In this document: positions 2,849 through 32,447 of the stretch, piece by piece
How positions within the stretch are numbered: the stretch's first letter is position 1
Layout of the letters: each line of letters begins with the position of its first letter
Position numbers and translations under genes: made by a program
Virus record (IMG/VR): IMGVR_UViG_3300035150_000015
Span: 1 to 64,000 of that record
Strand: one strand, 5' to 3'
Length of the DNA stretch: 64,000 nt
From: a virus
The notes under the pieces: generated by a model
The model's input: only the letters and a program-made list of their open reading frames with translations
Databases searched by the model: none
Told to the model about the DNA's origin: nothing

Positions 2849-4084
2849 TTACCGGCCCTTTCCGAAGGGAGTGCCGCGAGGTCGATCTGAAACTACTACA
2901 GGAGAAGACTGTGTGCGGTCAGGACGCACATACTTGTCAACGAACGAGGACATCCTCGGGTCATGTAGTTCTGGGTAGGTCTGTTGAGAGGCCAAACGTT
3001 GAGCGGCCAACTGCCGTCTACGGGTAAGACGGAACTTGACTTCCTCGGGGGTAAGTCCCTTTGCATCGGTCTCAGACACCAAAGCACGATCCCCGTACTT
3101 GTCCTCGAAATCTTTCTGCAGCTCCAGGAGGTGTTCCTGACGAGCCTGGAACTGTGCCCTGACTCTATTTTCATGAGCCTCCACAACCTCATCGTGCCAG
3201 TCTTTCTCTCCACGGAGGTCTCGTTCTAGCTGGTCTTGGAGTTCTTCCACCGTTCTAGCCACTTTGATTGGGGTTGATCCTTTGGATTTGTCTAAGGGTT
3301 CACCCAAGACGGCGAAACGAAGGATTTTGTCCTTCCGCTCCAAACGCTCTTCAGTCTCCTTTTTCCGACGCTGTTTGTCTTGGGTATGAACTTTGGACAT
3401 CCCTTTTCCAGCCATAGCGGAAGCAATGAACTTTGCGTTCTCCCACTCACGTTCTGCCTGGTCTTTGATGTCCTCGTAGTGATTCAGAGCTCTCCAGGTA
3501 AGCTGTCCCCAATTCATCCCAATGGCCGAAGAGCCTTCGATTCCAGTGACAGAAGTACTAGTCAGGTCGGACCCCTTCAACTGAGCCCATCGCAATCTGC
3601 TGGTACCCTCCATAGAGTAGGCTTCTGAGAGGATAACGGCTCGATTGGCCCTCCGGTTGACTTCACTCATGTGACGAACAATTTTGGCTCTGATTCCTTC
3701 CTCGAATTTATCAAAGGTCTCAACCAAGGCAGGCAAGTACTGATTCCGGTCGGCCAGTACATTAACCCCGTCGAGCATGAAAACCCCGTAAGCCAGGAAC
3801 AAACTGTAGTATCTTCGCAACCCTTTCTTGGTGTCAGTAGTTGTATACAGATTCAAGAGCTCAAACTCATGATGATTCAAGCTCTTGAACACAAATGGGA
3901 CCCCGTTGATTTCAGCTCCCACGTGAAGGAACCCACGAAAAAGAATGGGTTCCACGTCCCGGTAGACCTCAGGATTTACCTCTGGGGCACGAGGGATCTC
4001 AATATGCAAGTCATCCTCAGCCTCTCCGTCATACTGCTGTTGAAGCTTGCGTTGCTCGACCTCATAGTTTGCCTCAGAGGGCAT
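2849..4084 (-). CDS. putative tail assembly chaperone / pre-tape-measure protein
   Basis: Directly upstream of tape measure. N-domain (EINGVPFVFKSLNHHEFE...LAYGVFMLDGVNV) resembles the neighbouring paralogue. Confidence 0.5.
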   Translation of the reverse strand: MPSEANYEVEQRKLQQQYDGEAEDDLHIEIPRAPEVNPEVYRDVEPILFRGFLHVGAEINGVPFVFKSLNHHEFELLNLYTTTDTKKGLRRYYSLFLAYGVFMLDGVNVLADRNQYLPALVETFDKFEEGIRAKIVRHMSEVNRRANRAVILSEAYSMEGTSRLRWAQLKGSDLTSTSVTGIEGSSAIGMNWGQLTWRALNHYEDIKDQAEREWENAKFIASAMAGKGMSKVHTQDKQRRKKETEERLERKDKILRFAVLGEPLDKSKGSTPIKVARTVEELQDQLERDLRGEKDWHDEVVEAHENRVRAQFQARQEHLLELQKDFEDKYGDRALVSETDAKGLTPEEVKFRLTRRRQLAAQRLASQQTYPELHDPRMSSFVDKYVRPDRTQSSPVVVSDRPRGTPFGKGR

Positions 4085-23658: not shown

Positions 23659-26274
23659 TCAGAAGGTGATATTCTCCCAGACCACAGTTCGGCCTCTGCG
23701 CTCCCTTTCATCGGGGATCCCGGACTTGTCTGTGATTTGGGCCGGAGCAGTGTCCGGTGGAATCATAGGCGCCAGCTGGTCTGCCACATAACGGGCTACA
23801 TCGTCGAGGGGGACTCGATACCGGATGTCCTGTTCATCCAAATGCCCGATATTGAAATGCTGCTGTAAAATCATTCCCCGATTCGTGGGCATCCTCACGG
23901 CCCCGATCGAGTAACGCTCCCCGTTGATCTTCACAATGAAGTCCCGCTGGCTCACCAAAGGCCTGGGACCCATCCAAACTTCGTAGCTATGCTCAACAGT
24001 CCTGCCGGAATCTCTCTGTGTGATTCGACGCTCTCCGTCATCCGGAGCAATGATGATATCGTACGGGCCCTCAAATCCACCAAGTATCCCAGTGCCGAAG
24101 CAGTTATGTACCACTACTCCTTGAACAACATAAGTATGGTCACCTTCAACCTCAAGATTGTACACCAAGCCTTCGTAGGGGACTGTATCGATGGAACGAA
24201 TTTTAGTCAGCTGTTTACCCCCGTAGGCCCATCGACCTTTTCGATTGCTCTTCTGAAATCCAGTACCAGCCCAATTCACACAATAAGCCAACTTTCTAGG
24301 ATTTCCACTTGGTGCTGCAGGCCCCTTCTGTCTTCGAATCAAAGGCTGCTCACCCATTCGATGCAAAATCTCAGAGATCTGCAAAGACAGAATTTCTGAA
24401 GTCTGGGTAATTTCCGACCCGCCCTTCCATCCATCCCCATCGTAAATTCCTTGGAGAAGGAATCTCTGCTTATCAGGAGGAAGCCTCATAAACTCCTCAG
24501 GAATGTGCTTATTTTCACACCCACGCCCCAACCAAGTAGGAAACCAATCCGACAGATTCGAGCCATTCACATGAACCTGAACACCGTTTTCCCCACTTGG
24601 ACTGATGGATGAAGAATACCCATGATTCTTAAAGTAGGACGTTATCCTACTCTGGAAGTCTTTCTCTTCAGCATGAAGGGAAAAAGTCAGTGATCGAGAG
24701 CTAGAACTCCCTTCTGCCAGATACATACCCACGACCCAAAGGAAATCCTCCCCTACCGTGAAGCTAGTGGCACCTTGTCTCTCAGGCCCAAACTTAGATT
24801 GCTTGCGGAATTTCGAAGGAACTCCAATAGTATCCAGGTCCTCCACCACCGAAGGCCACTGAGAAACCAACCACCCACCTTTATTTAGTTCCTCTGCAGG
24901 TAACCATTCAAAAGAATGACACTTCTTGTGTTCTAGCCTATACGTACAAATAGCCTCTTCAGCTTCCTCTTTAGTGCGATAAGTGCCCAGACTTACCCTC
25001 ATCCCTCTGGTGCCACCCCCAACTCTAGCCCACCATCTACCACTCGGTAAAAGACGAACACTCGGGGGTCCTGAACGAAGGGTATCCTTCATTTCACCAC
25101 ATACTTTAGGCCCACAACCTAGAGCATTGTGATGATGCCCCACCAAAGAATAAAAGGGATGCTCTGGGGTCGCCAGAACAGGGTTGGCCGATACTGTCGG
25201 AAGAACTTTGATCAAATTACCCTTGAAGACTCTCTCGAATAGCTTCGTCACTCTCCGAAAGTCCCCCTTCGATGTCAGAACCTTTTCCCCCACTCGAATC
25301 TGATCAATAGGCTGATACCCAGATTCCGTTCTAACCAGAGACCCAGGAGGAAAACACAAAGTGCAGTCACTCTGGGGTTGCTTGTAGGAAACCTTTTGGA
25401 TGCAGTGACATTGCTGTCCTACGGCCTTCCGAAGAAAAGCTTTGACCCGCTCCCCGCCTTGAGCCAGAATCCACTGGTTTCTCCGAACCGCCTCACGCCA
25501 AATGTAGTCAAGCTTCTCGATCTCGAAATTACTGGTGGCTGCCGCGTACTCGAGAGGGGTCTCTACTAGGTCCTCCGGCTGAACTTCCGAGAGGGGGAGG
25601 TTGATTGGGACCCCGACCGTGGTGACACGGTAGAAAACCCGCTGAGACAAGTCCGTTCGAAGTAAAGAACGATTGTAGCGGTAAGTTACTGTTACCACAC
25701 TGTTTTCTTGTGGGACCACTGGAGTACTTAAAGACTGAGTGGCCACTTCTGGATACCAGTTGGGATCCAGCTCAATCTCCCCCGAAGGCCCATCGACACG
25801 AAGAACTCGAGCCTGCACCCCATCCACCTTGACAATGACCTCAGAAGCCCTGTGCTCCGGGACCGCTTGCGAGCCCGACTGCACAATGGGCCTTTGCTCG
25901 GTCCTGAAGACGTACCTGGGGGCGTCTAACTCACTGGCGGAGCACACCCCCCAGAGCACCCAACGGTCATCAGAGACGACCTCATCGACCACTACAACAT
26001 TGTCCGTTTGGTCCCTCCAGAAGATAGCTCCCACCGGAAGGTCTGTGATCCTCTCAAAGGGGCCGTACTCTGAATCGAAAGACCGATAAATATTGACCCC
26101 GTAGATAGAGAACCGTGAATTCAGAGCCAAAGAGGAGGGGTCATCCCACACCAAATCATACACCCCCGCCAAATACCCACTCGTTAGGAACAGATTGAGA
26201 GGGGGAACAGGCCATGTGACTTTCTCAAGCTCGAGTTGGTCAATTGGCCGGTCTCGATTCGTAGCGTATGGCAT
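23659..26274 (-). CDS. virion neck/head-closure-like protein containing an intein
   Basis: 871-aa precursor, 453 aa after splicing; splicing restores CHC...CTLCFGTG. Confidence 0.65.
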   Translation of the reverse strand: MPYATNRDRPIDQLELEKVTWPVPPLNLFLTSGYLAGVYDLVWDDPSSLALNSRFSIYGVNIYRSFDSEYGPFERITDLPVGAIFWRDQTDNVVVVDEVVSDDRWVLWGVCSASELDAPRYVFRTEQRPIVQSGSQAVPEHRASEVIVKVDGVQARVLRVDGPSGEIELDPNWYPEVATQSLSTPVVPQENSVVTVTYRYNRSLLRTDLSQRVFYRVTTVGVPINLPLSEVQPEDLVETPLEYAAATSNFEIEKLDYIWREAVRRNQWILAQGGERVKAFLRKAVGQQCHCIQKVSYKQPQSDCTLCFPPGSLVRTESGYQPIDQIRVGEKVLTSKGDFRRVTKLFERVFKGNLIKVLPTVSANPVLATPEHPFYSLVGHHHNALGCGPKVCGEMKDTLRSGPPSVRLLPSGRWWARVGGGTRGMRVSLGTYRTKEEAEEAICTYRLEHKKCHSFEWLPAEELNKGGWLVSQWPSVVEDLDTIGVPSKFRKQSKFGPERQGATSFTVGEDFLWVVGMYLAEGSSSSRSLTFSLHAEEKDFQSRITSYFKNHGYSSSISPSGENGVQVHVNGSNLSDWFPTWLGRGCENKHIPEEFMRLPPDKQRFLLQGIYDGDGWKGGSEITQTSEILSLQISEILHRMGEQPLIRRQKGPAAPSGNPRKLAYCVNWAGTGFQKSNRKGRWAYGGKQLTKIRSIDTVPYEGLVYNLEVEGDHTYVVQGVVVHNCFGTGILGGFEGPYDIIIAPDDGERRITQRDSGRTVEHSYEVWMGPRPLVSQRDFIVKINGERYSIGAVRMPTNRGMILQQHFNIGHLDEQDIRYRVPLDDVARYVADQLAPMIPPDTAPAQITDKSGIPDERERRGRTVVWENITF
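24103..25356 (-). mobile_element. cis intein (418 aa) with LAGLIDADG endonuclease and AP2-like insert
   Basis: CFPPGS start, ATPEHPF, VGMYLAEGS, LQGIYDGDG, VYNLEVEGDHTY, VVHN|C. Confidence 0.95.
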
Positions 26275-26307
26275 GGCTCTCTATAGAGGGAGAACCATAA
26301 GGGGAAA

Positions 26308-26640
26308 TCACTCCTCTTCTGGTTTCTCCGGGACCTCAGGTTTTGGTGGGGCCTCCTCAGGTTTTGGGGTGACAACATCCTCTTTTGGGACCAATTGCCG
26401 AGTATTGGCGTCGATGAACGCCTCCGCCGTAGGCTCCAATCCCCTCTCAACGAGGATTTGCTCGAACAGACGCTTGGACTGCTGATCTACTCTCTTGGAA
26501 GATGCCAAGATTTGAATCTTCTCGTGCTCCAGTTCCAGCAATTTCAGAGCCATCTGTTGTTTGGCGTCTCTCAGATTCACCAGCTGCTCAAAGAGCTCCT
26601 CAGAAACCGGATCGTTCACGGTAAGTTGTTTTTCAGCCAT
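26308..26640 (-). CDS. hypothetical coiled-coil protein
   Basis: 110-aa ORF. Confidence 0.6.
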   Translation of the reverse strand: MAEKQLTVNDPVSEELFEQLVNLRDAKQQMALKLLELEHEKIQILASSKRVDQQSKRLFEQILVERGLEPTAEAFIDANTRQLVPKEDVVTPKPEEAPPKPEVPEKPEEE

Positions 26641-26701
26641 GCCCCCCTATACACCAACTGGACTGAATGTCGCGACACAAACGCCCTAGAGCGGCTCAGT
26701 C

Positions 26702-26902
26702 TCACTCGGCTTGATCATCAACACTCAGAGCCTCCAGGCCCCCAGAAACGGTCAACTGTCGGACAATCTGTTCGCTGAGCTCCACTTCCTTATGCACCAC
26801 AGGAGAGTCCTCGGGGGAAACTACTCGAATTCGGAAAAGAGGCTCAACGATCTTCATCACAACCCAACAAACTTTCTGGGGCAAAATCCCCTCACTCATC
26901 AT
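26702..26902 (-). CDS. small hypothetical protein
   Basis: Short ORF overlapping the upstream stop; start uncertain. Confidence 0.35.
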   Translation of the reverse strand: MMSEGILPQKVCWVVMKIVEPLFRIRVVSPEDSPVVHKEVELSEQIVRQLTVSGGLEALSVDDQAE

Positions 26903-27062
26903 CAGCATATTGAGCAAAAGACCCTAGAAACACCACGGGTTTTTCCTTAGCACTCCGAATAGCCTCCCTAAGGTGTTGGAGACTCGAAGGAGAAAGAGGC
27001 TCACAAAAAACTTCCTCTTCCACAGAGTCTTGCTCTGAGTTCCTGTGGTGCTGGGCCTCCAT
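26892..27062 (-). CDS. small hypothetical protein (56 aa, not in ORF track)
   Basis: AAGGTGA RBS then MEAQHHRNSEQ...FLGSFAQYADDE*. Confidence 0.5.
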   Translation of the reverse strand: MEAQHHRNSEQDSVEEEVFCEPLSPSSLQHLREAIRSAKEKPVVFLGSFAQYADDE

Positions 27063-27077
27063 CAGTTCACCTTTTCC

Positions 27078-27707
27078 TTAGAACCCAATGAATTTACGGG
27101 GGGTCAGGACCCCAGATCCGGTGTGCGGCCCAAAGGCCGAACGTATCCCGATCCCATATCTAGGCTGCTGGAGCCCTTTGACAATCTTGACCGTCTGCTT
27201 GGCCCGCTCAAGCTGCTTGTCGAACTGGTCACTCATAGCCTGATACAGACTCTCGTACTTCGAGCTCTTGTCGATATCCAGTGAAACCCCTCCAATGGAG
27301 TACGAATTATGAGCTACAATGCCATTGGAAAGCACAAAGTTTTCCGGCCCAGGTACAGAAAGGTCATAGGAATTCTCTAAAGGATCGAGCTCCTCGGTGA
27401 GCAAAACTGGCTGAGAAGTCAATTCACCATCCAACACCACCGCCAATGAATCCCCAACTTTGAACTCATCAGTCAGAGTCTCCTCCAAAGTCCCATCTTC
27501 AGTCACTCTAAAAAGACTGTGATCTTCTGTGGCCACTACTTCCCCGGATTCAACAGTTACCCGGAAAGCCTTTTTGTGGGGGGTGCGATGTTTGAGCACA
27601 TCTCGTACCTTATGCCAATTAACCTTTCCATCAATTTCTACGGACTGGACTTCCAAATGTCCACACTTAAAGGCCTTTTTTATAGCACTTTTAGTCTCTT
27701 GATCCAT
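27078..27707 (-). CDS. split gene piece 3: C-intein 2 (134 aa) + C-extein (75 aa)
   Basis: VATEDHSLF (block B), SYDLSVPGPENF (block F), IVAHN|SYSIGG; no block A. Confidence 0.9.
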   Translation of the reverse strand: MDQETKSAIKKAFKCGHLEVQSVEIDGKVNWHKVRDVLKHRTPHKKAFRVTVESGEVVATEDHSLFRVTEDGTLEETLTDEFKVGDSLAVVLDGELTSQPVLLTEELDPLENSYDLSVPGPENFVLSNGIVAHNSYSIGGVSLDIDKSSKYESLYQAMSDQFDKQLERAKQTVKIVKGLQQPRYGIGIRSAFGPHTGSGVLTPRKFIGF

Positions 27708-28626
27708 GACAGGCCTCCTGAACTTGGCTTATACAGCCTTCTAAGTCTCCCCTAATAGAACACTCCTTCAACCGAACGACCTTCCAGCCCCTTTTCTCAA
27801 GGTAAGTCTGTTTCCTGATGTCCAAAGAGGCCATCTTAGGCTGAGGGGCATACCCACATTCAGTACACCCGTGCCAATAACAACCATCGACCTCTACCGC
27901 CACACGAAGTTCTGGATTAGCTTCATCTATCTCATAATATCCTACACGATGCTCTGTGAGGAAATCTCTTACCCCAGCTAAGTCTAGAGCCGATTTGAAT
28001 TCCAGGTGAAGTTTTGATGTCTTGGAATGATGTCTCCGAGCGTGGGCTGCCGAATCCAAAACGTGCTTCCGATTGTTCTCGACCCACTGCCTCTGCTTCT
28101 TTCTGAATGCAGGGTCTTCCCACATACGTCTGCTGCGCATTGAAGCAGCTTTTTTGAACTCTGGGTCCTGATTCAGAGACCTGAGGTGGGCAGCGGCCCT
28201 CCTCCCATACTCCCCAGCCTGCATTCTTTTAGAAGCCTCAGATATCTGCTTTTTGGTCTTCTGGCCAGCCTCTGTCTGAAACCTAGCCCTTAAGACCTCC
28301 GATTGATGCTCCTTCTGATCTTGGGTTTTGGCTATCCGCCTAGAGCAGAAATTAGATACATAAGTAGCATCGGGGTGTCGCATCTTATAGGCAGCAAGAG
28401 AATAACCACTACACATTTTCAAGTGTTTAGTGGTCAAGATAGAGCAAAAAGCTCCACACTCTACACACCGAACGTAATGCTCGCCCTCCACCATACAATG
28501 TGAGATAACGTCTACCTTATTCCTGAGACCAGAAGTCACCCTCACTGAAATCGCCCCCTCACCCACTAAGGAGTCGAAGGTCCTACTATTTAGGCCAAAC
28601 TTCAGCAGAAATTGACGTTTAGTCAT
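27691..28626 (-). CDS. Vsr/DUF559-like free-standing endonuclease within split intein 2
   Basis: YEIDEA..VAVEVDGCYWHGC..D.RKQTYLEKRGWKVVRLKEC; N-terminal zinc finger and helical repeats. Confidence 0.85.
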   Translation of the reverse strand: MTKRQFLLKFGLNSRTFDSLVGEGAISVRVTSGLRNKVDVISHCMVEGEHYVRCVECGAFCSILTTKHLKMCSGYSLAAYKMRHPDATYVSNFCSRRIAKTQDQKEHQSEVLRARFQTEAGQKTKKQISEASKRMQAGEYGRRAAAHLRSLNQDPEFKKAASMRSRRMWEDPAFRKKQRQWVENNRKHVLDSAAHARRHHSKTSKLHLEFKSALDLAGVRDFLTEHRVGYYEIDEANPELRVAVEVDGCYWHGCTECGYAPQPKMASLDIRKQTYLEKRGWKVVRLKECSIRGDLEGCISQVQEACHGSRD

Positions 28627-29359
28627 TGCAGATAGAATGTAGGTCCTGAAGGCTGATGTCAATCTCCCCCAGGTCTGGAGTCCGAACTCTCACTACAGAA
28701 TCCCCGGAAAGTGAAAACTCATCGGCTACCCAGTTCATCATCAAGGCAAAGATAGCGTGAAGCATGGCCCCATTCAGCAAGAGGGTCCTCCAGTCTGGAT
28801 AGCATCTAATCATAGACTGACAATTCGTGAAGACCGTCCGAGGGGGAGCCGCAGAAATCATGTCCAGAGACCTCAAGAGATACTCTTGGAGCTCGGCATC
28901 CTCCCAGATGTAACCAAATACCCGATTGAACTGCGAAACAGTGGTTTCGTGGGCAGGTGGCCTGAAGTGGTAGTTTCTATCGGGGGAATTTGATACAAGC
29001 ATCCCAGATTTCACCAGGAAAAAATTGTGCCAATCCTCAGCGGTAAGGTCATACATATACTGACGGGAAGGCAATCTCCTGACAGACACCACCGAAACCC
29101 CAGAAACCGAATCCCCCGAACAAAGCTTCTCCGCCTCAATCTTACTTGTAGGGGTGAGGAATACTCGGTGTCCTCCCGTGAGTACAGAAACTCCCTTAGA
29201 AGTAGCAACTTCTACTATGGTTTCAGGGCCTACTTCCGACCGACTGACTTCAAGAACCTTCTTCCAATCCAACTGTCCATCAGGCCCACAAGACTTCACC
29301 CTAAGCTTACCAGAAGCATAGGCAGCTCGAATTCTATCTCGTTGTACTTCGTTCAACAT
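28619..29359 (-). CDS. split gene piece 2: C-intein 1 + middle extein (91 aa) + N-intein 2 (31 aa)
   Basis: LTGGHRVF, MYDLTAEDWHNF, LVSN|SPDRNY (junction 28988/28987); WVADEF|SLSGDSVVRV (junction 28715/28714). Confidence 0.88.
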   Translation of the reverse strand: MLNEVQRDRIRAAYASGKLRVKSCGPDGQLDWKKVLEVSRSEVGPETIVEVATSKGVSVLTGGHRVFLTPTSKIEAEKLCSGDSVSGVSVVSVRRLPSRQYMYDLTAEDWHNFFLVKSGMLVSNSPDRNYHFRPPAHETTVSQFNRVFGYIWEDAELQEYLLRSLDMISAAPPRTVFTNCQSMIRCYPDWRTLLLNGAMLHAIFALMMNWVADEFSLSGDSVVRVRTPDLGEIDISLQDLHSICND

Positions 29360-30272
29360 TTCCAAAATCTTTCTCGGTCAGAATTCGGAAGTCCCACCCT
29401 TGATCAAAAGCAAAAGAAGAAGCTTGACGAAGACGCTTCCGAATCTTGTGTTCTTCAGGCAGCTCCAGCACCCAACTGGCCTTCACCTCTATCAAAACCA
29501 CTCCACTTCCATACCGAACCACAAAGTCTGGGAGAATCCACCGGCCACCCGGAAGTTCCAGTCTGGGTTCAAAATGATACTCCAGAACCGAAGTGTCTGA
29601 GTCTAATATCTTGACCACGACCCTTTCGTAGCTACTGCGGGTCCAGATTGGAGACCGAGAACACTTCTCGGGGGTCACCCAGGCTCCTCTTCCACGACAC
29701 CATTTCTCAGGGGTCTTCAGCATCCTTTTAGTTTGAGCCTCAGAGCGTTCTCTTCTGGTTTCCTCAGAACGATGATAATCCAGGAGGGCTTTCCGGAACT
29801 CCGGATTCTGCCATCTCCGAAGAGCCGACTGATGTCTCCTCTCCTTCACCTCCGGACGAAGAGAAGCCAACCGAAGGGTTTCTCGTTCTTGTTCGGAACG
29901 AATACGACCTCGGTGAAAGTCGAAGGAACCTGATGCCCATTGCAACTTCAACTGGCCAGACAGCCAAGGTTTTTTCTCTCCTTTTCTAGCTCTACCAACC
30001 TTCGCTGCACTCTCTCGACGATTTCTCCGAGAAGCCTCATTCCACATCGCACGAGTGCCCCTTTGAATAGCCCCTAAAGAGAGGCCAGTCACTGCGATCA
30101 TATGGTTCCAACTCATACCCGAAAGATGAAGTTCGGTGATGATATCTCGACGCTTCTCAGTTACCCAATGTAGGTCTTTGGGCAAGCGACCTTTTCGAGA
30201 GAACAACTCCCAAGACAACCCATGCTTCTCAAGAAGGGGTATCAGTTCCGTGGATGGTTTCGAAGAGCTCAC
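29334..30272 (-). CDS. TnsA-like PD-(D/E)XK free-standing endonuclease within split intein 1
   Basis: RSSYE...YHFEP...ILPDFVV...LIEVKA...FRILTE; HTH and helical repeats N-terminally; start uncertain. Confidence 0.8.
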   Translation of the reverse strand: MSSSKPSTELIPLLEKHGLSWELFSRKGRLPKDLHWVTEKRRDIITELHLSGMSWNHMIAVTGLSLGAIQRGTRAMWNEASRRNRRESAAKVGRARKGEKKPWLSGQLKLQWASGSFDFHRGRIRSEQERETLRLASLRPEVKERRHQSALRRWQNPEFRKALLDYHRSEETRRERSEAQTKRMLKTPEKWCRGRGAWVTPEKCSRSPIWTRSSYERVVVKILDSDTSVLEYHFEPRLELPGGRWILPDFVVRYGSGVVLIEVKASWVLELPEEHKIRKRLRQASSFAFDQGWDFRILTEKDFGNVERSTTR

Positions 30273-30726
30273 GGAGGGATACTATCATTTTTCCCCCATC
30301 CACATCAAGCTCAATCTCCTCTTCTCCCCCAAGGCAATTGTCTCTCAGGAGGATCCTGAGCCTCCGCATCATATCCGTTTCACAGTCACTGTAAAGAGTC
30401 ACCAAGTTTGTGGCTTTGTCGATGACCTCGAACTCCTGGACCACCTGATGCACGGGTCCGCCAACCAACTCCCGGAAAGTCCAACGAACCCGGTAGGATC
30501 CAATATTGGCATCCAGAGGGATGATGATCGAGGCGTAGTAGTGCCCAACCGAGGGGTTGACAGGTGTGCGATGAGGGACTCCCAAAAGAACCTCTAACCC
30601 GGTCGTGAAATCGTAGAGGGCATAGGTAATTTCGGCCGCATTGGTAGGGTGTCCTGAACTGTTGTCCAAGTAAATGTTCAGGTCCTCGGCGCCTAGTTGC
30701 TGACCTCGGTAAAACGCTACGGACAT
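30229..30726 (-). CDS. split gene piece 1: N-extein (130 aa) + N-intein 1 (35 aa); putative neck/adaptor protein
   Basis: RRLRILLRDN|CLGGEEEIEL...IVSLRELFE (block A from 30336). Confidence 0.85.
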   Translation of the reverse strand: MSVAFYRGQQLGAEDLNIYLDNSSGHPTNAAEITYALYDFTTGLEVLLGVPHRTPVNPSVGHYYASIIIPLDANIGSYRVRWTFRELVGGPVHQVVQEFEVIDKATNLVTLYSDCETDMMRRLRILLRDNCLGGEEEIELDVDGGKMIVSLRELFETIHGTDTPS

Positions 30727-30914
30727 GTTGCCTCCAATTGCTCGCGCTCAAGGGCTTTTCCTTGACGTTTTGCCCTTGCTCTAGCAGACCAAACCCGATC
30801 ACCACACAAGGGGCAACAGCACCCTCCGGACTTTCCGAGAAATGACAACCAGCCATAGGGGTTCATGCGACGAGCCCCACGGCCGTTCGAAAGCTTGAGC
30901 TTGATACGCTTCAT
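30717..30914 (-). CDS. small basic Cys-containing hypothetical protein
   Basis: 65 aa filling the intergenic gap; CCCPLC. Confidence 0.45.
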   Translation of the reverse strand: MKRIKLKLSNGRGARRMNPYGWLSFLGKSGGCCCPLCGDRVWSARARAKRQGKALEREQLEATCP

Positions 30915-30916
30915 CC

Positions 30917-31300
30917 CTACCTATCGGACCGCCAACCAGCCTCAAATTTGTCAGCTAGCGATGCACACATGGCGCCAGGATCATCGATGCCCTCTTTTCC
31001 CTGAAGTCTCTTGATGCAAGCTGTCACCTTGTGTTTCCGGTCTCCTGTCAAGCTCTCCCAAAAGCTCTTGAGAGACTTCTGAGTCCAGCCCTTGGGGAGG
31101 TTCTTCCAAGCTGCTGTCATGATCCGAGTATCACTAAAAAGAGCATAGGCCCGAACCTTGGATATACCCATAGAAGCCATCTTGGTGGCGCACTGGGGGC
31201 ACAACGCAGCAATCTGCTCTCGGGTCACCCAGACATCGTCTTGGGAAGAATCTACTCTCGAAGCTAGGAAATCACTAACAACACGATCTGAAAGGGTCAT
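30917..31300 (-). CDS. hypothetical protein
   Basis: MTLSDRVVSDFLASR; CPQC; LPKGWTQKSLKSFW module. Confidence 0.6.
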   Translation of the reverse strand: MTLSDRVVSDFLASRVDSSQDDVWVTREQIAALCPQCATKMASMGISKVRAYALFSDTRIMTAAWKNLPKGWTQKSLKSFWESLTGDRKHKVTACIKRLQGKEGIDDPGAMCASLADKFEAGWRSDR

Positions 31301-31301
31301 T

Positions 31302-32054
31302 TCAATTCCACCCATACTTTCTGCACCGAACCGTCGCATCCATTGGGTCATTGGCCATGACTGCGTCCAAAACCCTGAAAGTCATCTCTTTGGTCTGAGC
31401 CTTGAACTGAGGGCTCTCCTGGTATTCCCAGACTATAACCCAATCACCGGGCTGCCCGAGCTCCCCGGCCCGGCCCGTTGCATAGTACTCCCCCACGTCT
31501 CCCTTCACCGGGAGTCTAGACGGACCCACTTGAAAACGTGTGCCATTAGGCCTTTTTTGGTAGAGGGTATAGACCACCCTCACCGGTGATACAGGTCCAG
31601 CTGCGTCCCTGATGTAGATTGCCAGGTCACCCCTTTGAAAAAACTCCATGTACCGGAAACACTTCGAGGGACATGTGGTAGCCCCATATACCGTGTGGGT
31701 GTAAACACCCAAAGAGCCATATAGCCAGGAATCCCCCACAAGAGGTAACGGGTACCACCAAAGTAGCTCGCTGCCCCCTGACAATCTTCCGGAGAGACGG
31801 ACTATTCGATCCAGACTACCAGAAACCTCACCTACCCCGTCCAGGATCCCTGCGAGGTTTTCCGGGAGAACGGGAGGATCCGCCTCTATGCCACCGATTC
31901 CTTGAAAGGTGCCAAATAACGGTTGGATCAGACCAACGGTTCCTTGTTCTGCTCCGATGGTCCCCGATCCCTCAAAGAAAACTTGGAACAGACTGAGAGT
32001 ACCCTCTAGACTAGAGGTCCCTTCTAGACCACCCTGGAACGGAATTAGAGCCAA
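31302..32054 (-). CDS. putative virion structural protein
   Basis: Gly-periodic N-half; C-domain resembles the N-extein of 30229..30726. Confidence 0.5.
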   Translation of the reverse strand: MALIPFQGGLEGTSSLEGTLSLFQVFFEGSGTIGAEQGTVGLIQPLFGTFQGIGGIEADPPVLPENLAGILDGVGEVSGSLDRIVRLSGRLSGGSELLWWYPLPLVGDSWLYGSLGVYTHTVYGATTCPSKCFRYMEFFQRGDLAIYIRDAAGPVSPVRVVYTLYQKRPNGTRFQVGPSRLPVKGDVGEYYATGRAGELGQPGDWVIVWEYQESPQFKAQTKEMTFRVLDAVMANDPMDATVRCRKYGWN

Positions 32055-32447
32055 TTATGACTCCGAGGCAAATAGCTGCCCTATAGCGAAAACAGCTTGG
32101 TTTCCCAAAGAAATGGTTCTAGGCACGGAAAGAGCAGTCCAGTAGAGCATATTCCCTGCCGTCACAGCATCGAAGGCGGCGAATGCTACTACTGTGCCCC
32201 AGTCCGCTGTAGCTGTCCCAAAATCCACTGCTGCTGTATTGCTGATCTGCACTGGAGGGGTTTCGGTAGCGTCTTCAAACGTGACCGCCTTACGGATATA
32301 CCCTCCACCAGTGACCTCGGTACCACCTCCAGCGTCCGTAGGGGCTACTGTAAAGAGAGCGATGTAAACAGCAGCCGGGGAAGTGTAGGTGGTAGCCCGG
32401 AAAACATGGTTGAGAAGGGCAGCCTTCAAATAGTTTGACTTAGCCAT
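32055..32447 (-). CDS. small phage virion structural protein
   Basis: SNYLKAALLNHVF..VYIALFTVAPTDAGGGTEVTGGGY, a widespread phage structural family. Confidence 0.7.
   Translation of the reverse strand: MAKSNYLKAALLNHVFRATTYTSPAAVYIALFTVAPTDAGGGTEVTGGGYIRKAVTFEDATETPPVQISNTAAVDFGTATADWGTVVAFAAFDAVTAGNMLYWTALSVPRTISLGNQAVFAIGQLFASES

Follow-up and report, generated by a model that had tools for sequence, protein, structure and literature searches.

A probable head-to-tail adaptor of a huge phage, predicted to be assembled from three pieces by two atypically split inteins

Five open reading frames (ORFs) on the minus strand of the IMG/VR virus record IMGVR_UViG_3300035150_000015 (positions 27078–30726 of its first 64 kb, the stretch analyzed here and called the window) very probably comprise the three pieces of a single gene for a head-to-tail adaptor protein and two nuclease genes. 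We propose that the adaptor gene was invaded at two conserved motifs by two different mobile cassettes, and that the three pieces into which it has been divided would be joined by two split inteins. The record as a whole is 104,443 bp long. By CheckV's estimate this is only 22% of the genome, which makes the phage a huge one, with a full genome of roughly 475 kb. All five ORFs, each of which overlaps the next by 17–44 nucleotides (nt), are present on the minus strand as an earlier reading of the DNA letters alone (the sequence-only reading) had described them, and the details of that description that were checked proved correct.

In the mechanism that we propose, each cassette would be a mini-intein with a free-standing homing-nuclease gene in a loop near intein residue 30–45. 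The nuclease gene's own start and stop codons would cause the intein to be made as a short N-terminal part (IntN) and a long C-terminal part (IntC), and the host gene would become three genes, giving five overlapping ORFs in all that are probably co-transcribed. After translation, IntN1 would pair with IntC1 and IntN2 with IntC2, and each reconstituted HINT domain would carry out class-1 splicing, with intein 1 using Cys1, its terminal Asn and Ser+1, and intein 2 using Ser1, its His-Asn pair and Ser+1. The product would be a single adaptor of 296 amino acids (aa) with the junctions LRDN-SPDRNY and VADEF-SYSIGG. The nucleases, TnsA-like at site 1 and Vsr-like at site 2, would presumably cut intein-free alleles during co-infection, and the whole IntN-nuclease-IntC cassette would then be copied in. 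Since the middle piece begins with IntC1 and ends with IntN2, any cross-reaction between the inteins would have to be avoided. It appears moderately likely that the locus represents a natural three-fragment ligation, in which two orthogonal atypically split inteins build an essential neck protein, and that this arrangement arose repeatedly by independent homing.

The three pieces and the protein they encode

The proposal that the pieces form one gene is based on their colinearity and synteny with intact homologues. A search of extein 1 against 1.84 billion representative proteins returned 260 relatives (E ≤ 0.001). When the three exteins are joined, the resulting sequence (130 + 91 + 75 = 296 residues, the length that the sequence-only reading had given) aligns with 28 contiguous homologues of 292–311 aa, and there is no gap at either junction. 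Intein-free homologues of this kind, which the sequence-only reading had singled out as the thing to look for, thus exist and span both junctions; among them, P0004 has a length of exactly 296 aa and 69% identity to extein 1. Over residues 1–130, the contiguous homologues are 69–81% identical to extein 1. Where they read LRDN/NPDRNYHF and ADEF/xYSIGG, the window reads LRDN/intein 1/SPDRNYHF and ADEF/intein 2/SYSIGG, and the alignment places both break points inside the most conserved motifs of the host protein. Insertion into the most conserved motifs of a host is usual for inteins.

The surroundings of the pieces tell the same story, as the closest extein relatives (L007, L009 and L108; 77–81% identical) have an intact gene between the same neighbors that flank the three pieces here, and extein 3 shares 77–81% identity with the end of the contiguous L007 and L009 genes. 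The hallmarks of a fractured gene, namely same-strand pieces, an in-frame IntN end, an IntC start, a nuclease ORF in between and uninterrupted homologues, are found twice in this one gene. No second copy of extein 2 is present in the 104-kb record. Profile searches with the separate pieces gave no more than a non-significant Pfam match for piece 1, and no extein family match in PHROGs for any piece. Coordinates of the ORFs and of their parts are collected in Table 1.

Table 1 Features of the adaptor locus and a neighboring head gene, in window coordinates.
Feature	Position	Strand	Description
Piece 1	30229–30726	−	165 aa, ends ...LRDN/CLGGEEE...
Extein 1	30337–30726	−	130 aa; Ig-like sandwich and first adaptor helix; ends ...LRILLRDN
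IntN1	30232–30336	−	35 aa, net charge −7, begins at catalytic Cys1 (CLGGEEEIEL...); stop codon 30229–30231
Nuclease 1	29334–30272	−	312 aa, free-standing gene; N-terminal helix-turn-helix-like domain, C-terminal TnsA-like PD-(D/E)xK nuclease
Piece 2	28619–29365	−	248 aa from TTG (246 aa from ATG); IntC1, extein 2 and IntN2
IntC1	28988–29359	−	124 aa from ATG 29359; block B TGGH, block F YDL, C-terminal VSN then Ser+1
Extein 2	28715–28987	−	91 aa, SPDRNYHFRPP... to ...NWVADEF
IntN2	28622–28714	−	31 aa, net charge −4, begins at catalytic Ser1 (SLSGDSVVRV...); stop codon 28619–28621
Nuclease 2	27691–28662	−	323 aa from TTG 28662, or 311 aa from ATG 28626
Piece 3	27078–27707	−	209 aa; IntC2 and extein 3
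IntC2	27306–27707	−	134 aa; block B TEDH, block F YDLSVPG, C-terminal AHN then Ser+1
Extein 3	27081–27305	−	75 aa, from SYSIGGVSLDIDKSSKYE... to the C-terminus; stop codon 27078–27080
Head protein (phrog_240)	32055–32447		PHROG match; two genes upstream of the adaptor pieces

The best reading of the host protein is that it is a head-to-tail adaptor of the phage neck, to which three moderate lines of evidence point: the predicted fold, a match to a PHROG family and the annotation of a homologue in GenBank. In an AlphaFold2 model of an intact homologue (predicted local distance difference test (pLDDT) score of 79.8), an Ig-like sandwich (residues 1–108) is accompanied by a helical domain, and residues 113–276 match the Pa223 adaptor (9nwi_A; Z score of 10.4, root-mean-square deviation (RMSD) of 3.9 Å over 109 residues) as well as KHP30 (7wmp_m; Z 10.3) and T4 gp13/gp14 (9lu4_D; Z 10.0). 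PHROG 17327, "head-tail connector protein," matches six of 30 homologues, and GenBank annotates gp319, the homologue in Tunturi_5 (a cultured Tunturiibacter phage of 309 kb), as a head-tail connector. A Foldseek search of the PDB with the adaptor model returned no match at E ≤ 0.001, and the family profile found nothing significant among PDB sequences. The label "virion gene" in the sequence-only reading can in this way be sharpened to that of a probable head-to-tail adaptor. A 250-aa ORF two genes upstream (31302–32054, minus strand) includes a domain paralogous to the Ig-like one at the N-terminus of the adaptor (30% identity, E 4e-5). Such upstream paralogues are found in most related loci, and the domain is present twice in some relatives.

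The two inteins and the nucleases between their halves

Piece 3 matches the Pfam Intein_splicing model above its cut-off (E 6.3e-12, 46 bits), and IntC2 aligns with residues 42–183 of a solved 184-residue TFIIB mini-intein (E 1e-6). Only the first ~40 intein residues are therefore missing from IntC2, which corresponds to an atypical, early split. With IntN/IntC lengths of 35/124 aa for intein 1 and 31/134 aa for intein 2, and with block B located inside IntC, both inteins have the make-up of atypically split inteins. The sequence-only reading had classed them as such, and alignments to solved and contiguous mini-inteins bear this out: IntN1 aligns with the N-terminus of contiguous mini-inteins found at site 1 in relatives, IntN2 with that of contiguous mini-inteins at site 2, and IntC2 with contiguous inteins at site 2. 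The alignment places both breaks in a loop whose length differs from one contiguous mini-intein to another, past the block-A strand and a short helix and ahead of a conserved KxxFxxGxLxVxS strand. The two inteins are distant homologues of one another (25% identity, E 3e-10), and since their alignment is colinear across both breaks, they are split at an equivalent position. IntC1 is as the sequence-only reading described it apart from its start, which we place at ATG 29359, the position used by relatives, rather than at TTG 29365, so that it has 124 and not 126 residues.

The residues expected of class-1 inteins are present in both, with C1, TGGH, N and S+1 in intein 1 and S1, TEDH, N and S+1 in intein 2. 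All of these features are invariant among relatives. Across 30 middle pieces with 45–64% identity to that of the window, neither the block-B residues T63 and H66 and the terminal N126 of IntC1 nor Ser1 of IntN2 vary, the residue following IntC1 (+1) is always Ser or Cys, and Cys1 of IntN1 is invariant in 16 relatives of piece 1. The consensus sequences of the two IntN families differ, being acidic for IntN1 (CVGGEExVExDVDGE) and of the form SVxGxTxVxVxLPDG for IntN2. An absence of cross-reaction between the inteins is plausible in view of their 25% identity and of the different charge patterns conserved in the IntN families.

A TnsA-like nuclease had been assigned to gap 1, and a fold match to TnsA at a Z score of 12.2 upholds that assignment. 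The Pfam profile Tn7_TnsA-like_N matches nuclease 1 with an E value of 1.2e-5 and 26.2 bits, slightly below its cut-off of 26.5. An AlphaFold2 model (pLDDT 85) superimposes over residues 194–307 on Tn7 TnsA (1t0f_A) with an RMSD of 2.4 Å over 108 residues, the next match having a Z score of 8.0, and Foldseek likewise pairs the protein with TnsA (E 2e-5). The E...PD...ExK residues are conserved across the nuclease 1 family and are kept in the window copy, and the N-terminus resembles a helix-turn-helix of the type in DnaA domain IV (Z 6.0). The nuclease 1 ORF shares 44 nt with piece 1 and 26–32 nt with piece 2.

The second gap holds a Vsr-like nuclease, as the sequence-only reading had supposed, with a CxxC...H...C zinc motif and a Vsr-like/DUF559 nuclease domain with DGCYWHGCTECG. 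Nuclease 2 scores above the cut-off for Pfam DUF559 (24.8 against 20.6 bits), matches Pfam Vsr (E 0.006, 16.9 bits against a cut-off of 27) and NCBIfam vsr (E 1.5e-4, 22 against 97.85), and also matches PHROG endonuclease and homing-endonuclease families. Its Vsr-type core, DGCYWHxCxxCG, is conserved in 13 relatives, and the window copy keeps the motifs. Searches of PDB sequences with both nucleases gave nothing usable. The most likely role of the two nucleases is homing into empty alleles, as suggested by the strict pairing of nuclease family with insertion site and by the cassette-type polymorphism, both of which are described below.

Related loci, mobility and competing explanations

Among relatives, the same two sites are seen in every intermediate state: empty, occupied by a contiguous mini-intein, or occupied by a split intein that either has a nuclease gene or lacks one. 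Contiguous mini-inteins of ~150–195 aa occupy, for example, site 1 in P0012 and site 2 in P0008 and P0016, and both sites in P0074. P0005 and P0015 combine a contiguous intein at site 1 with a split one at site 2, and other relatives are split at one site only or at both. We scored 124 IMG/VR loci, the window included, for their state at the two sites. Most are intein-free (76 loci), 15 are split at site 1 only and 10 at site 2 only, four are split at site 1 and contiguous at site 2, four are contiguous at site 1 only and three at site 2 only. Both sites are split in six (the window and five further loci), and the remaining six are incomplete, being truncated at the end of a contig or left unscored. 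With the middle piece as query, 513 relatives were found, and among the best 120 clusters at 90% identity, 30 have the IntC1-extein 2-IntN2 order of a gene broken twice, as in the window, and 72 the IntC1-extein 2-extein 3 order of a gene broken once. The expectation that a doubly split gene would be much rarer than a singly split one has to be tempered, as such genes recur in metagenomes, although no published account of one was found in the searchable literature.

Two of the doubly split loci, L092 and L093, have a five-gene layout identical to that of the window. L094, a close relative of L093, consists of three adjacent pieces and has no nuclease genes, and L115 has a nuclease gene in gap 2 only. 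L084 has nuclease remnants, one of which (L084:3458–4774) is fused in frame to the middle piece. Nuclease genes in varied states of decay, present as N- or C-terminal remnants, were also observed in the gaps of L006, L088, L091, L095 and L100, and in these loci as in L084 the split inteins are kept.

Other layouts were observed as well. In L064 (2955–4393) the gene order is permuted, with the IntC2-extein 3 gene located 41 nt upstream of the extein 1-extein 2-IntN2 gene; this locus lacks a nuclease gene, and the two halves of its intein look intact. In L073 (3880–5451) the reading frame of a Vsr-like nuclease continues, with no intervening stop codon, into IntC2-extein 3 to give a single ORF of 523 aa, which may be a split intein with a nuclease domain on its C-half or may contain an internal start. 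Four relatives (P0039, P0059, P0073 and P0089) reveal a third insertion site in the adaptor family, six residues downstream of site 1 (LRDNNPDRNY/S...), at which the intein is again split and starts with Ser1.

Comparisons of near-identical phages that differ by exact cassettes point to recent mobility. L004 and L042 have flanks that are 97% and 91% identical around an exact 1361-nt IntN1-nuclease-IntC1 cassette at site 1. The flanks of L003, with a contiguous intein 2, and L014, with a split intein 2 and a nuclease gene, are 98% identical; the 954-nt nuclease gene of L014 corresponds to 13 nt in L003, and the C-terminal part of the intein is 95% identical in DNA. Each nuclease family is confined to one site: every filled site-2 gap contains kin of nuclease 2, which occupy no site-1 gap, and every filled site-1 gap except that of L005 contains kin of nuclease 1, which occupy no site-2 gap. 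The L005 gap is occupied by a 278-aa ORF (3175–4011) that is unrelated to the TnsA-like family and may be a different nuclease within the same split intein.

On a tree of the exteins from 118 loci, the states are scattered. The site-1 split requires 17 changes, the site-2 split 14 and the double split five, and at least three of these five are forced by strongly supported branches; the double break therefore arose several times through independent invasions. Co-conversion of flanks during homing may blur the extein tree. The ratio of nonsynonymous to synonymous substitution rates (dN/dS) between the doubly split L093 and L094 is 0.07 for IntN1, 0.27 for IntC1, 0.07 for IntN2 and 0.11 for IntC2, with values of 0.05–0.08 for exteins 1 and 3, although dS is near saturation and these values are rough. 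The low ratios for the intein parts indicate that the arrangement persists under purifying selection, even where the nuclease genes have decayed or are gone.

Besides the roughness of the dN/dS values, several points weigh against a three-fragment ligation that yields a neck adaptor. Piece 2 scores 29.3 bits with Pfam Intein_splicing (E 8.5e-7), where the cut-off is 35.8, and its sequence matches in the PDB are weak (E 0.15). The penultimate His is absent from intein 1, which has Ser instead (VSN), and likewise from most of its family, while intein 2 has AHN. Inteins without this residue are known; its loss therefore lowers confidence in fast splicing and is compatible with class-1 membership. 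Orthogonality is argued from two observations only, the 25% identity and the charge patterns. The structural matches of the adaptor, with overall Z scores of 9.7–10.4 for a helical protein, lie below the level that the fold-comparison tool regards as safe for helical folds. Finally, with a record that is about 22% complete, a second, intact adaptor gene may lie elsewhere in the genome.

Some of these points would fit a system of partial function, in which one intein is inactive or the inteins cross-react, giving two-piece ligations, cyclized or polymerized middle pieces and cleavage products, so that the neck is built from a mixture. The IntC-extein-IntN geometry of the middle piece is the one that engineers use for cyclization, the two inteins are homologous, and intein 1 is the one without the penultimate His. 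We nonetheless consider this unlikely, since 30 clusters of 45–64% identity have kept the double split with no change in the catalytic residues of either intein, purifying selection acts on each of the four intein parts, and the IntN families keep their distinct consensus patterns. The same invariance bears on a noncovalent assembly of the three pieces, in which the intein halves would act as mere affinity tags and no splicing would take place. Phage genes split by a nuclease and lacking an intein can yield active multi-chain enzymes, with the nrdA of an Aeromonas phage given as an example in the introduction of the fractured-genes paper (PMC2677866). However, residues that serve catalysis only (Cys1 or Ser1, Thr and His of block B, the terminal Asn, and Ser or Cys at +1) are invariant, and ~160 extra residues within the most conserved motifs would hardly be tolerated in a dodecameric neck ring, which makes such an assembly decidedly improbable.

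That the locus is a decaying pseudogene, with another adaptor gene elsewhere in the genome doing the work, would be allowed by the fraction of the genome that the record covers. We give this very little weight, as the exteins are free of frameshifts and stops, the joined product can be aligned from end to end with intact genes, relatives have their single intact gene in the syntenic position, the 104 kb at hand hold extein 2 once, and divergent phages keep this layout under purifying selection. Removal of the nuclease segments as mRNA introns, or their bypass by the ribosome, with translation of a contiguous-intein or intein-free protein, is hardly credible: group I introns of phage genes often house homing nucleases, but Rfam at E ≤ 1 has no match across 26000–32000, to an intron or any other family, the nuclease ORFs overlap both of their neighbors and leave no noncoding room for a ribozyme core, the nuclease-free L094 still has separate ORFs with their own stops and starts, and the permuted gene order of L064 is not repairable by RNA splicing in cis. 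Splicing of three polypeptides by two split inteins thus remains our preferred reading of the locus.

Comparison with known systems and genomic setting

The closest natural parallel is provided by the fractured genes described by Dassa, London, Stoddard, Schueler-Furman and Pietrokovski (2009), whose loci are "fractured in two" only (PMC2677866), and in which the Vsr-like family was first proposed as homing nucleases (PMC2677866). The window locus resembles these in having same-strand pieces with split-intein halves and a free-standing homing nuclease between them, and the Vsr-like family is common to both. It differs in that the gene is broken twice and has a middle piece with an IntC head and an IntN tail, in that one of its nucleases is TnsA-like, and in that its inteins are split at an early, atypical position rather than at the usual site of the nuclease domain. 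In addition, the host is a virion neck protein instead of a DNA-metabolism enzyme, and the ORFs overlap where fractured genes have spacers of 27–51 nt (PMC2677866).

Atypically split inteins are known but few, and include the AceL-TerL and GOS-TerL types and PolB16 OarG (PMC10189870, PMC12707363). Like these, the window inteins combine a short IntN with a long IntC that holds block B, and intein 2 shares its Ser1/Ser+1 pair with PolB16 OarG (PMC10189870). The IntN parts are somewhat longer here, at 31–35 aa compared to the 15–25 aa quoted for characterized members (PMC10189870, PMC12707363). The window has two such inteins in one gene, and both belong to large natural families, known from sequence alone, with contiguous, split and nuclease-bearing members. 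Its arrangement of three polypeptides and two split inteins, with a middle fragment flanked by IntC and IntN, is that of engineered tandem trans-splicing (PMC7090010, PMC12707363, PMC11168065). Those are laboratory designs that employ inteins of unrelated sources, whereas the window would hold a naturally evolved pair in one operon. In the searchable full-text literature, whose scope leaves most subscription journals outside, no account was found of two split inteins breaking one natural gene. What this locus and its relatives add is the double break, the Ser1/Ser+1 family at site 2 and the sister pair of split and contiguous inteins; fractured genes with a single split and a nuclease were already known.

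If the proposed reading is true, tandem trans-splicing is not only a laboratory design, and a three-piece gene has been kept working in many phage lineages, some of them free of the nucleases. The related loci display a possible route to an atypical split, in which a tolerant mini-intein loop either has or lacks a free-standing nuclease gene, with near-identical phages representing the two sides of the event. Hundreds of natural variants with a short IntN of 31–35 aa, which is within reach of peptide synthesis, are available in the two families, one of which uses serine nucleophiles only. If trans-splicing takes place, the inteins have presumably been selected against cross-reaction, as a one-pot ligation of three segments requires. 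The locus also illustrates that a structural neck protein, and not replication enzymes alone, can be an intein hot spot, the adaptor family having at least three insertion sites. For both intein researchers and protein engineers, the locus is clearly of interest.

Within the window, the minus strand holds nearly all long ORFs. PHROG matches are few among the neighboring genes that were tested, the head protein listed in Table 1 being one of them, and the source databases give no informative name for these proteins. A DNA similarity search against deposited phages returned a single 77-bp match only, and promoter and terminator scans did not rise above shuffled expectation. Further inteins are found in the same record. 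An 871-aa gene two genes downstream of the adaptor pieces (23659–26274, minus strand) is interrupted by a full-size intein (CFPPGS... to ...VVHN/C) that includes a nuclease domain of the LAGLIDADG type, and the gene's homologues in L007, L009 and L108 are without an intein. Outside the window, two additional minus-strand ORFs (about 67856–69187 and 97717–99012, ~1115 aa) match the intein splicing model, and the 104-kb record carries at least five inteins.

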